From contig CAWBQK010000017.1 in NCBI GenBank assembly GCA_963791045.1, positions 64,001 through 128,000 of the forward strand: a stretch of DNA of 64,000 nucleotides, given 5' to 3'. Numbering within the stretch: position 1 is the first letter of the stretch; each line of letters begins with the position of its first letter. The notes under the pieces were generated by a model. That model had not been told where the DNA came from, did no database searches, and saw only the letters and a program-made list of their open reading frames with translations. Of the stretch, positions 19,217 through 23,258 are shown one piece after another. The translations under genes were made by a program, and so were the position numbers. The stretch is from Candidatus Latescibacterota bacterium. GTDB taxonomy: Bacteria; Krumholzibacteriota; Krumholzibacteriia; WVZY01.

Positions 19217-21102
19217 CTACTGCATCGCGTAGACCGGGGTCGCCACGAGCGGGAAGTCGTTTTTCTGCGCGTCGGTCCACTTGTGGGCCGTCAAGTCGGT
19301 ATGGAACAGGTTGTTCGATCCGAACTTGAGACTGTAGGCCTCGTAGCCCAGCATGTTCAGGTACGCGGTGATCTGCGACGAATGCTGACCGGTCCAGCAG
19401 TAGACCACGATCGGCATGTCGGTCGGCAGGTTGGCGAGCATCTCACCCATGCCGAGACTCGCGTACGGGGTGAACTGGAAGGCGCCGGGGATGTGCCCGG
19501 GAACGCCGCTCGTGCCCGTGCCCAAGTAGTCGGCCTCACCGAAGTAGTTAATGACGAAGTAGTCATTCAGGTTGTCCTGGATGTCCGTGTACGAAATTCC
19601 CTTGAAGCCCGCGGCCAGCATGGCGTCGACGCGATCCTCCACGACCGTCGCCCGTTTTCGCCGGCGAGCGTCGGATACTGATGCCAGGCCAGGTTGCCGT
19701 TCTGGTTGGCCGTCTCGGCCACGTGAGATTGTCAGCCACGTTGTTAGTCCCAGGAACCAGCGAGGGTTGAGTTCCACGCGGACATGCCGAAGTTGAGCGA
19801 CTTGACATCTTCGTAGCCCATGAGCTCCAGGGCGATCTTGGCGTGGCCGGCAGCACTGGCCGGAGTAGCAGGCGATGACGATAGGCATGTCGTCGGGGAT
19901 CGTGCCGGTGCCGAGATCGTTAACGATCGTTGTAAGGGTGGAGTGATAGGCGCCGGCGATGTGGCCGGCGTCGTAGTCTGCGATTGCGCGAATGTCGATG
20001 ACCGTATAGTTGGCCAGGTTGTCGTGCAGGGCCGTGGCGGAGAGTACGCCGGGGCAGTCGGCCGTGTCGTTGATGTACGCAGCGCCTGCTGCGGCCATCG
20101 CTTCAAAAGCGGTGGTGCCACGGGGACCGGTTTCGAGCTCGAAGTCGTGCTGCGCATCGTCGGTCCACTTGTGGGCCGTCAGATCGGCATGGAACAGGTT
20201 GTTCGAACCAAACGAGAGGCTGTAGGCCTCGTAGCCGAGCATGTTCAGGTAGGCGGTGACCTGCGACGAGTGCTGGCCCGTCCAGCAGTAGACGATGACG
20301 GGCATGTCCGTCGGAATGTTCTTGAGCATCTGGTCATCGGCCAGGCTTGCGTAAGGCGTGAACTGGAAGCGCCGGGGATGTGACCCGGAACGCCGCTTCC
20401 GCCCGTGCCTTCGTAGTCGGCCTGGCCGAAGTAGTTGATGATGAAGTACTCAGACGAGGTTGTCTTTGATGGAATCGTAGGATTTGCCTTTGAAACCGGC
20501 GGCGAGCATCGCCGAAACCTGGGTGGCAACGATTGTGTTCGCGTCACCGGAAAGGGTCGGAAAGGCGTGATCCGTGAGATCACCGTTGTTGTTGGTGGTC
20601 TCGACGACAAGTAGTTTGTCATCGACATTGTTGTCCCAAGAGCCCGACAGTGATGAATTCCAAGAAGACATACCGAAGAGAAGCGAATACGTATCCTCGT
20701 AACCCATGAGTTCAAGGGCGATCTTTGCGTGACCGGCCGACTGTCCCGAGTAGCACGCGATGACGAACGGTTTGTTCGTCGGGATGGTCGTTCCGACATC
20801 CGTCAAAAGGGTCGCCAGTGTCGAATGATACGCGCCTGCAATATGTCCGTCCAGGTAGGCGCCTTCGGCGCGAATATCGATGACGGTGTAATCTTCGAGA
20901 TGGTCAAAGACGTCCTGCGCGTTGACCACGCCGGGACAGTCCGCGCTGTCATTAATGTAGGCCGAGCCGGCGTCGACCATTACTTCAAACGCCGTTCCCG
21001 TGGTGGGTGGTGTGGTCGTGCCGTTATCATCGTCATCCGAACAGCCGATAAAGGCCACCATCGCGATGGCCAACATGGCCACCAACATCCAGTGTTTCTC
21101 AT
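19217..21102 (-). CDS. Four-domain rhodanese (sulfurtransferase) lipoprotein, split by several frameshifts
   Basis: Reconstructed from ORFs 20450-21088, 20245-20799, 19744-20157, 19563-19856 and 19217-20329. Lipobox FIG-CSDDDD; active-site loops CYSGQS, CWTGQH, CYSGQ and CWTGQH; GHIAGA/GHIPGA motifs; ATG at 21102 after a GAAGGAG RBS. Confidence 0.85.
19240..21000 (-). repeat. Internal tandem duplication (about 0.89 kb unit) within the rhodanese gene
   Basis: For example 19273-19440 and 20161-20330 are visibly near-identical at DNA level. Both halves encode TAFExM..AGxAYINDxADCPGV...CYSGQ...CWTGQHSSQ...LTAHKWTD. Confidence 0.85.
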
Positions 21103-21212: not shown

Positions 21213-22614
21213 CTATCTTGCTGCGGGGAAATCCTCCTCGATTACCACACCGATGTTGGCATCATAATCCGGCAGTTTGGTCATTCCGTCCTCTTCATAG
21301 AGATCGGACTCTCTGAGGAGGAAGCCGTCCGGACCACTCTGGCGTGTAGTGGCACGCGTCAAAACACGCGGCGTCTCCGACAGTGGTCTGCGGTGTCCAA
21401 CGGAGGATGTTGTGCGGGGAGGCATAAAGCCAGGTCGGTTTGTCGAGGTAACCCGGCAGTGACAGTCCCCAACCGGAGTATGTATCCGGGTCGATCGGCA
21501 CGTGGCGTACGATCGAATAGTCATACTCGGCACGGTAGGGGCTGGCATTTTTCCCGATCTTCAACTGCACGACACTCGGATCGATTTCATAATCGGGCGT
21601 GTCGAAACCGTGACAGTTTGTGCAATTCTTGTAAGGCTGCGAATGACAGACTTGACACTGGAGCTTGGGACCGGAGCCGGTCACGTGGGCCTGATGGTAC
21701 GTGTTCCCCCCGGTTGTTCCGTGGCAGTCCTCGCAACGGGGCATCGTTTTGACCTCGTAGCGGTGGTTGTAATGATCGCCATCGGAGAGACCATCGCCGT
21801 GGATCTCCTCTTTGGTGTGACAGAACTCGCATTTGTAGCCGCGGGAGCGGTGAACGTCAGGCTGGTTGCCTTCGATTTCACCCTTGTAGTCCGTGCCGAT
21901 GCGGCTGCCGTGGCATGCCGTGCATTGTTCGTTCATGTCGGGTGATTGCGGAAACGGTGCGAGTAGTAGGACCCAATCTTCGGGAATCCGCCGCCCACGC
22001 TGTTCGGCCGGCTGATGTGGCACTGTCCACATGTCGTGTGACAGCCGCCGCATCTGCCGTTGTACTGTTCTTCAATTCCCGATCCATCGAAGGCCATACG
22101 CGCGCGAATTTCGATGGCGTTTTTTTAGCCCCACAGGTTCGAATGAAGACTGTTGGCGGTTGCTCGGGCTTCCCTGGTAGGCTGACAGGCCATCTCGCAT
22201 GCACCGAAGGCGCTCGGGTCAGGGACCATGTCGACATGCGCCTCTTCCATCGTGGTGAAGGTGCTGTCGGCCTGGCCGTTGTGACAGCTCTGACATGGCC
22301 CTCTTCCCGTGAACGCTGCTGAGGAAGATGTCACCGTTGTTTCCGGTGATGATGACTTTTTCCCAAGCTTCCAGCTCGGGTACGTCGCCGCCTCAGCCAT
22401 CGTCCATGGCGACAAGCCTGATCGGGGGCATCGATGAACTCCCAAGTGACGCCTTCAAGCTAGACTCACTCGAGTGACACCCCAAACAGGTCGCCGTGGA
22501 GGCGATCGGTGGATCAACCGGCGGGTTGGTCACCGAATCATCGTCGTCTGAGCATCCCCAGAACGCGATCGCCAAAAGAAGAGATAATGCGCTGAGAGCA
22601 AAAAGCTTCTTCAT
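21213..22614 (-). CDS. Multiheme (about 10-11 heme) c-type cytochrome lipoprotein, probable selenoprotein; additional indels present
   Basis: Lipobox FWG-CSDDDD. Heme motifs CLGCH, CQSCH, CGGCH, CGQCH, CTACH, CEFCH, CEDCH, CQVCH, CTNCH and CFDACH, plus a possibly damaged CEMAC(Q). The in-frame TGA at 22395-22393 is followed by coherent coding (GGDVPELEAWEKV). Reconstructed from ORFs 22393-22614, 22125-22445, 21295-22053 and 21213-21548. Confidence 0.85.
22362..22395 (-). promoter_or_regulatory. UGA codon plus candidate bacterial SECIS hairpin
   Basis: mRNA reads UGA-GGCGGCGACGUA-CCCGAGCU-GGA-AGCUUGGG: an 8-bp stem (one G-U pair) starting 12 nt after UGA, with a G-initiated apical loop. Confidence 0.7.
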
Positions 22615-23258
22615 GCACTCCTCCCTGGTTGCTGCCGACCGTTTCCGGGTGTCAGGTCAAGTCTGAGACCCTTCGCGAAGATCGGCACGTTGTTACAAAT
22701 CACATCGCCTGGATTAAACTCAAAATCTGAAATCTTACTCCATGTATCTACGGATAAGGCGCAGTCCATGACCATCCCAATAAAACAACGGCTGGTGATA
22801 AAAGGGTCGACTTCGATTACCTCTTGGGTCTCGATACGTCGTTCGAGTTCCCGTTGGAGATATGTGATGTAGGGAAGGCGGACTTCCCTGAAAAGAACAG
22901 CCGCGACTGGCCCACTTTCCAAAGAATTCACGTGCATGAGCCGCAATAGCTCCGGGTCGGTTTCGATGAAACCGAGAATGTGTTCGGCAACCGTCGTAAG
23001 AACATCTTCTAATTCGCCGCAGTCGCTGCATTTCTCAAGAAAGTCCGCGATGTCGTGCTGATCGGCCTTCCGGTGGATGACGGCCTCGTACAATGTGATC
23101 TTGCTGGGGAAGTGTCTGTAGATGGCCGCTTCGGTGATAGCGCACGCCTTCGCGATCGAACGGAGCGATGTTCCCGTGTACCCACTCTGGGCAAAGAGAC
23201 GCGTGGATTCGTGAAGAATCTGTTCGCGACGGTTTTTCGGTTTAGAAGCTGTGGCCAC
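22611..23258 (-). CDS. TetR/AcrR family transcriptional regulator
   Basis: FAQSGYTGTSLRSIAKACAITEAAIYRHFPSK HTH. Its stop overlaps the cytochrome ATG (ATGA). Confidence 0.93.
   Translation of the reverse strand: MATASKPKNRREQILHESTRLFAQSGYTGTSLRSIAKACAITEAAIYRHFPSKITLYEAVIHRKADQHDIADFLEKCSDCGELEDVLTTVAEHILGFIETDPELLRLMHVNSLESGPVAAVLFREVRLPYITYLQRELERRIETQEVIEVDPFITSRCFIGMVMDCALSVDTWSKISDFEFNPGDVICNNVPIFAKGLRLDLTPGNGRQQPGRSA

Follow-up and report, generated by a model that had tools for sequence, protein, structure and literature searches.

A predicted family of selenocysteine-containing eleven-heme lipoprotein cytochromes c encoded beside rhodanese genes

The minus strand between 21213 and 22614 of the window (by which we mean the whole stretch analysed, 64,000 nt, positions 64,001-128,000 of the forward strand of contig CAWBQK010000017.1 in assembly GCA_963791045.1 of Candidatus Latescibacterota bacterium, Krumholzibacteriota) very likely constitutes one gene, in which UGA codon 74 is read as selenocysteine (Sec) and whose product is an exported and lipid-anchored cytochrome c with 11 covalent heme sites; the breaks in the reading frame are probable assembly errors, and the protein probably acts on polysulfide or related sulfur compounds. 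As judged by sequence comparison, this UGA is decoded as Sec with the help of a downstream hairpin, and the cytochrome gene forms a unit with an upstream gene for a TetR-family regulator and a downstream gene for a lipoprotein with four rhodanese domains (Table 1). The predicted protein belongs to a family that is distinct and apparently uncatalogued, and that is of the multiheme-cytochrome-plus-rhodanese selenoprotein kind.

Table 1. Coordinates of the cytochrome gene, its predicted signals and breaks, and its two neighbours in the window.
Feature	Position	Strand	Basis and remarks
Gene for a predicted Sec-containing 11-heme lipoprotein cytochrome c	21213-22614	-	About 467 codons; three-frame translation and tblastn
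Predicted Sec codon UGA, residue 74, loop D-G-U-G-G	22393-22395	-	77 of the best 80 loci carry TGA in the aligned position; Sec machinery
SECIS-like hairpin CCCGAGCU-GGA-AGCUUGGG	22362-22380	-	Starts 12 nt past the UGA; fold energy and covariation
Predicted lipoprotein signal peptide, lipobox Cys21 (..AFWGC), then acidic SDDDD	22552-22614	-	Translation; Cys21 invariant in 70 of 70 relatives
Frame break 1: one base extra compared with relatives, directly 5' of heme site 2 (CQSCH)	22303-22310	-	tblastn frame change at 22303/22307
CAG (Gln) in place of the His of heme site 3; site reads C-E-M-A-C-Q	22182-22184	-	tblastn; His149 invariant in 70 of 70
In-frame TAA; relatives have Glu or Tyr (NLWG-E-K)	22125-22127	-	Three-frame translation, tblastn, relative P0002
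Frame break 2: one base lost from an A run; relatives read RFRKSPDM	21945-21948	-	Three-frame translation, tblastn, relative P0002
Frame break 3: one base extra, about 40 codons 5' of the stop	21334-21338	-	Three-frame translation, tblastn, relative P0002
Gene for a lipoprotein with four rhodanese domains, about 620 aa	19217-21088	-	Four indels leave two patches out of frame; both ORF pieces match Pfam Rhodanese
Gene for a TetR-family regulator	22611-23258	-	Pfam TetR_N, E 2e-14; stop overlaps the cytochrome start (ATGA)

The starting point was an earlier note made from the letters of the window, which described a 73-aa ORF at 22393-22614 on the minus strand and proposed that the TGA closing it specifies Sec. 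The ORF reads as described: it opens with a methionine at 22614, continues as MKKLF...AFWGC...CLGCH...VAMDDG and meets the TGA at 22395-22393. Past this codon the same frame goes on as GGDVPELEAWEKVIITGNNGDIFLSSVHGK, and CQSCH follows after a 1-nt change near 22303-22310; the peptide spanning the predicted Sec would be DG-x-GGDVPELEAWEK, where x is the residue at the UGA. When the first 104 residues were used as a query against 60 related genomes, ten strong matches were obtained (E 1e-12 to 2e-31), the other matches being weak ones to the signal peptide. Each of these ten relatives contains exactly one internal TGA, which aligns within (D/E)-G-TGA-G-G, and the frame read through it spans 446-518 codons and encodes an intact lipoprotein, 442-501 aa long, with 9-11 CxxCH sites. 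Within a phylum set of 208 genomes, the source genome included, 72 genomes gave matches at E <= 1e-20; the site was spanned in 71 of them, and a TGA lay inside the match in 69 and was absent in two. Of 41 rows of this set that were checked codon by codon, 39 have TGA (37 distinct genomes), while the site is CAA (Gln) in genome G146 and TGG (Trp) in genome G196. In the species-representative collection, whose best 80 loci overlap the phylum set so that the two sets of counts are not independent, TGA occupied the site in 77 of these 80 loci, and TGT (Cys, locus L154), TGG and CAA occurred once each. The protein database yielded P0155 (..GG-C-GG..) as another Cys form; homologs with G-C-GG at this position, which the earlier note had mentioned, do exist, though they are rare. 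The relatives have a TGA at this site rather than an end of the protein or a random residue. The assembly contains many errors, and the earlier note had cautioned that the TGA might be one of them, but a base-calling error for TGC, TGT or TGG is hardly credible when the same codon is TGA in 77 of the best 80 independent assemblies; the caution was well placed for the frame shifts and misplaced for the TGA.

The machinery for Sec insertion is present in the source genome. The searches for selB (374 bits), selA (460 bits), selD (373 bits) and tRNA-Sec (66 bits) all scored above the curated cut-offs, and ARAGORN reported a tRNA-SeC with the anticodon tca. The selD gene of this genome itself has one in-frame TGA. 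Together with the aligned TGA of the relatives and the conserved hairpin described below, these genes bear out the reading of the UGA as a Sec codon. With regard to the remainder of the genome, TGA ends 554 of 1255 open frames of at least 400 codons and is the commonest ordinary stop, so a reassignment of the code was ruled out. A loss of the Sec trait as the background of the Gln and Trp forms was likewise ruled out, since G146 and G196 both retain selB and tRNA-Sec.

When 70 complete proteins of several phyla were aligned, the predicted Sec lay in the loop between heme 1 and heme 2, (D/E)-G-U-G-G, and was present in 67 of the 70; the flanking glycines G79, G81 and G82 recur in 68-70 of the aligned proteins. 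Gene callers nevertheless divide the gene at this codon, as had been anticipated, and 14 of 16 database entries inspected start after the TGA. Such annotation would correspond to a UGA that terminates translation and leaves two genes, one for a 73-aa monoheme lipoprotein and one for a separate 10-heme protein. We regard this as very improbable, because heme attachment requires export and yet the part after the codon lacks a signal peptide, because near-invariant residues flank the codon on both of its sides, because L154 and P0155 have Cys at this site and form one continuous protein, and because the hairpin behind the codon is conserved.

Bacterial SECIS elements are hairpins close to the 3' side of the UGA with a G early in a small apical loop, and an apical loop of 3 nt, as found here, is at the small end of their range. 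The hairpin that had been noticed in the window, at 22380-22362, proved to be the core of the minimum-energy structure. A 71-nt segment folds at -26.7 kcal/mol compared with a mean of -16.8 for shuffled sequences (z -3.44), and one of 200 shuffles folds as well. The selD hairpin was examined as a comparison: its stem-loop, 13 nt past the UGA, folds no better than shuffles (z -0.42). An Rfam scan of 22250-22500 returned chance matches alone (E >= 2) and no matching family. Across the cytochrome family the hairpin starts 9-12 nt past the UGA, and the apical loops (GGA, GGC, GUU and GGU) all start with G. Two registers of the hairpin were seen, the loop being placed 3 nt further upstream in the second one, which occurs in other clades. 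Rows were assigned to the registers by their inner-stem pattern before counting, which inflates the percentage of paired cells but cannot produce covariation of the outer pairs; counted in this way, the eight pairs of the first register were formed in 93.2% of cells (38 phylum sequences, 33 of them distinct) and those of the second register in 91.8% (23 rows). The corresponding shuffles gave 87.6 +/- 1.0 and 81.9 +/- 1.4, respectively, with none of 500 as high in either case, and slid partners in the first register reached at most 49.6%. Pair 29-39 of the first register alternates between CG (17) and AU (13), a switch that exchanges Glu for Ala, Thr or Pro on the side of the 5' arm while remaining synonymous on that of the 3' arm. 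In the second register four pairs are altered on both sides, one of them occurring as C-G (8), G-C (8), A-U (5) and U-A (1). This covariation indicates that the hairpin is maintained through compensatory changes.

Seen from the family, the copy in the window is broken in several places (Table 1). The orthologues, 442-503 aa in length, are intact once the TGA is read through, and residues 1-475 of the intact orthologue from genome G016 align by tblastn from 22614 to 21216 with alternating frames. At frame break 1 the context is GGG/CC, and the protein resumes in the next frame as G(R)GPCQSCH, where P0002, a relative 86% identical to the window protein and intact over its 370 aa, has HGKRSCQSCH; at heme site 3 P0002 has CDGCH. 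Orthologues of the rhodanese with four domains cover 21100-19232 in tblastn, across the patches of the neighbouring gene. We consider the frame shifts, the TAA and the His-to-Gln change to be probable assembly errors, because the essential genes rpoB and rpoC of the same assembly are broken likewise, rpoB into at least eight and rpoC into at least six consecutive pieces with alternating frames, and lepA, too, is split across three frames. Since essential genes cannot be pseudogenes, the assembly (21 contigs, completeness 80.9%) must contain patches dense in indel errors.

It is also conceivable, though unlikely, that the selenoprotein family is genuine and that the cytochrome-rhodanese operon is a real pseudogene that is decaying in this organism. 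The approximately nine disruptions in 3.4 kb are clustered, the neighbouring ORFs for TetR, an alcohol dehydrogenase, Tex and a kinase being open, and they include two substitutions (the TAA and the change of His to Gln) in addition to homopolymer indels. Furthermore, the search detected the gene in none of the 12 further genomes belonging to the source organism's own family, which would fit an ongoing loss. On the other hand, rpoB, rpoC and lepA are equally densely broken in this assembly, the close relative P0002 is intact, and the TGA and the hairpin are unharmed; on our reading of the alignment, of the residues invariant among the orthologues the window copy loses one, His149, and no more. 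Neither of two further measures separated error from decay: the coverage by long open frames, as a local measure of errors, placed the locus at the 15th percentile and was uninformative, and GC content at codon positions gave no discrimination.

The protein can be described from the family alignment. Across the 70 proteins, conservation extends to the Cys of the lipobox, to eleven heme sites (ten CxxCH and one CxxxCH), to the G-U-G-G loop and to several arginines. The earlier note had counted 9-10 hemes in addition to the first one; the multiheme nature holds, while the number becomes 10 sites after heme 1 (nine CxxCH and one CxxxCH), one of which has Gln for His in the window copy. Outside the heme motifs there are ten invariant histidines, whereas no free Cys or Met is invariant in the 70 proteins and no Cys beyond the heme sites and the lipobox is kept at >= 95%. 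Eleven hemes thus face ten candidate distal histidines, leaving one heme with no obvious sixth ligand, as a matter of counting and not of structure. The acidic residues that follow the lipid-anchor Cys of both the cytochrome and the rhodanese resemble what we take to be surface-export signals of related phyla. An AlphaFold2 model computed with the hemes omitted was of moderate confidence (pLDDT 67.7), with low confidence in the Sec loop. A Foldseek search with this model against a copy of the PDB that possibly lacks the structures of MccSep (see below) gave nothing at E <= 0.001, the best fold match being a non-significant one to octaheme tetrathionate reductase (1sp3, E 0.9, TM 0.21). A sequence profile run against PDB sequences found no solved relative (the best match, E 0.0048, was to an unrelated reaction-centre cytochrome), and Pfam and NCBIfam returned generic matches to cytochrome c7, c3 and MtrC domains and nothing else, so that no model in these two collections covers the family.

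The association with a rhodanese is nearly constant. In 66 of 75 loci Pfam identified the ORF on the 3' side of the cytochrome gene as a rhodanese, with either two or four domains, and tblastn revealed the rhodanese in six further loci where ORF picking had missed it, which brings the count to 72 of the best 80 loci. In six of the eight remaining loci the sequence breaks off less than 250 nt past the cytochrome gene. Only two are truly devoid of a rhodanese, namely L112, a Gln form with no Sec, and L148, in which a pyridine nucleotide-disulfide oxidoreductase is found instead. The active-site Cys is invariant in both rhodanese domains, and in four proteins of 637-654 aa (P0150-P0153) the cytochrome is fused to C-terminal rhodanese domains. 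In 41 of the best 80 loci the cytochrome gene is immediately preceded by a TetR-like gene of the same orientation.

The closest characterised counterpart is MccSep/ExtKL (GSU2937-2936; NCBIfam NF040886) of Geobacter sulfurreducens. Its description (PMC13510729) presents a cytochrome with five hemes, one of which, the catalytic heme, is His/Cys-ligated, and with an Ig-like domain at the C-terminus that bears Sec325 in a D-G-U-P loop; the enzyme has polysulfide reductase activity and also reduces selenite, and it is encoded in a cluster with a rhodanese-like lipoprotein, ExtH (NF040901). The two families are alike in being exported multiheme cytochromes c with a single Sec specified by an in-frame UGA plus hairpin, in having this Sec in a Gly-containing loop after Asp-Gly (D-G-U), in adjoining a gene for a rhodanese lipoprotein and in being routinely split by gene callers (PMC13510729). 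They differ in that the new family has 11 heme sites compared with five, has its predicted Sec between the first two hemes (residue 67-80) and not in an Ig-like domain at the C-terminus (residue 325), and is a lipoprotein, whereas MccSep is described as soluble and periplasmic (PMC13510729). In addition, no heme-ligating free Cys is invariant among the 70 proteins of the new family. The NF040886 model was matched neither by three orthologues at E <= 0.1 nor by four more at E <= 0.01; the view of the earlier note that the family is not ExtKL is thereby upheld, heme number and Sec position differing as well. The ExtH model NF040901 gave 22.5 bits with the partner rhodanese (cut-off 200), in a match confined to the N-terminal signal region. 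The predicted proteins of the new family have none of the defining features of MccSep that were tested (family model, heme count and Ig-like domain, ligating Cys). No sequence or fold similarity to MccSep was detected in the copies searched, which possibly lack its structures, and a heme-ligating free Cys is not conserved, so that the mechanism of MccSep is not simply transferable.

The selenoprotein table of a 2026 review (PMC13188914) includes three cytochrome-related Sec families, ExtKL (NF040886), GSU2204 (NF041027) and an octaheme family (TIGR04315), and none of the three models was matched by the seven orthologues scanned. The tetrathionate reductase family octaheme cytochromes c (TIGR04315) share with the new family that they are multiheme, are concerned with sulfur compounds and have Sec-containing members according to the same table (PMC13188914), but there is no HMM match at E <= 0.1 and the heme count differs. 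TsdA and SoxAX are similar in carrying out sulfur chemistry at a heme with a chalcogen side chain as the sixth ligand (PMC13510729); they differ in that the candidate residue here is Sec and its heme contact is putative, and the best SoxA match had an E of 0.025. A description of a Sec-containing 11-heme cytochrome family was not found in the literature searched, although the supplementary tables (PMC13510729, BSepDB), which were outside the search, may list members.

On the basis of the analogy with MccSep/ExtKL and the pairing with a rhodanese, the protein most likely reduces polysulfide or another form of sulfane sulfur in a selenium-dependent manner. The selenol, carried by the flexible G-U-G-G loop, would attack the sulfane sulfur of polysulfide or of a rhodanese persulfide, or possibly selenite, and electrons from the heme chain would then reduce the Se-S adduct, releasing sulfide. 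The rhodanese would serve as substrate carrier, shuttling a poorly soluble substrate. In the Sud-Psr system of Wolinella succinogenes, a periplasmic protein of the rhodanese type carries polysulfide sulfur to a terminal reductase, which is a molybdoenzyme, unlike the heme selenoprotein considered here.

The same selenoprotein might have a different task, either oxidising sulfide, thiosulfate or polysulfide, with electrons passing into the heme chain, or serving at the cell surface as the terminal reductase of selenite, tellurite or metals. We find this less likely, in as much as the closest characterised analogue is reductive on polysulfide, even if our own data do not separate one direction from the other. 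Rhodaneses are also used in oxidative sulfur pathways, the best fold match, non-significant as it is, is a tetrathionate reductase, locus L148 has a pyridine nucleotide-disulfide oxidoreductase where the rhodanese normally stands, and MccSep is described as reducing selenite too (PMC13510729).

The count of ligands allows a more speculative proposal. With ten invariant histidines for 11 hemes and no invariant free Cys or Met, Sec may pair with the remaining heme. It is possible, though as a whole quite unlikely, that the Sec is the sixth ligand of, or lies directly over, a heme with no His partner, that it acts there on sulfane sulfur delivered by the rhodanese, possibly at the cell surface, and that this arrangement arose independently of MccSep. 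To our knowledge, no natural His/Sec heme centre was known before.

MccSep (2026) is the sole characterised multiheme selenoenzyme that we found, and the new family would be a second, apparently independent case. If this is true, its 11 hemes, its lack of a Cys partner and its fixed rhodanese companion would make selenium-heme chemistry on sulfur a recurrent design, and the family is a clear target for expression, structure determination and assay. The copy in the window is a poor representative of the family on account of its probable assembly errors. The public protein entries for relatives are C-terminal fragments that are named 'hypothetical protein' or, at JGI, 'thiosulfate/3-mercaptopyruvate sulfurtransferase'. 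As a consequence of this misannotation, selenoproteins are under-counted in these uncultured lineages of sediment and soil, and a probable respiratory enzyme for sulfur or selenium goes unnoticed when their metabolism is reconstructed. In one-genome-per-species collections we found at least 557 stretches encoding a relative, and the record titles of the relatives name Krumholzibacteriota, Eisenbacteria, Gemmatimonadota, Latescibacterota, Calditrichia and others.

Two relatives of the selenocysteine (Sec)-containing multiheme cytochrome carry another residue at the Sec site (see the table). The genome encoding the Gln form (G146) has kept selB and tRNA-Sec despite this replacement, and no rhodanese gene was found within 2.5 kb downstream of the cytochrome gene. 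In G146, as a single case, the loss of Sec is accompanied by that of the rhodanese partner. For the Trp form, the contig (G196:C80) ends close downstream of the gene, before the region where a rhodanese gene would be visible. Next to one Sec-containing member, the place of the rhodanese gene is occupied by a pyridine nucleotide-disulfide oxidoreductase gene.

In the assembly that contains the window (G000), another multiheme cytochrome locus weakly matched the N-terminal part of the Sec cytochrome with an E-value of 0.003 and the C-terminal part with 1.5e-12 (38% identity). This locus lacks an in-frame TGA and may represent a Sec-free paralogue. JGI names the C-terminal cytochrome fragments P0002, P0003 and P0005-P0007, among others, 'thiosulfate/3-mercaptopyruvate sulfurtransferase', a name probably inherited from fused cytochrome-rhodanese forms.

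The selD gene of G000 itself encodes a selenoprotein. A GC-rich stem-loop begins 13 nt 3' of its UGA, and its predicted folding was no better than that of shuffled sequences.

From the fragmentation of rpoB and rpoC it follows that indel errors are densely clustered in parts of G000, a probable explanation for its completeness of 80.9%. A Sec codon in lepA was rejected, since the flagged 'TGA' arises from out-of-frame reading.

Both the cytochrome and the rhodanese carry an Asp run directly after the lipid-anchor Cys, which presumably resembles the lipoprotein surface-export signals described for Bacteroidota; the corresponding stretch in relatives reads CDNDTSN or CENDTSN.

Location and character of the loci and sites discussed
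Feature	Location	Character
Second multiheme cytochrome	G000:C15:254372-256849	Weak likeness to N- and C-terminal parts of Sec cytochrome
L072/L112	G146:C1:1093573-1095111	13 hemes; Gln (CAA) replaces Sec
L073/L096	G196:C80	D-A-W-V-G (TGG) instead of D-G-U-G-G
Oxidoreductase gene	L148 3728-5077	
selD UGA	L010 1531-1533, G000:C6	..YASCAG-U-AAKF..
rpoB and rpoC	G000:C5:40912-48769, outside the window	Many consecutive pieces, reading frames alternating
lepA (EF4)	L006 1471-3359, G000:C18, ~700 nt downstream of tRNA-Sec	Split over three frames
Asp run (GCSDDDD), cytochrome	window 22540-22551, minus strand	
Asp run (GCSDDDD), rhodanese	window 21025-21040, minus strand
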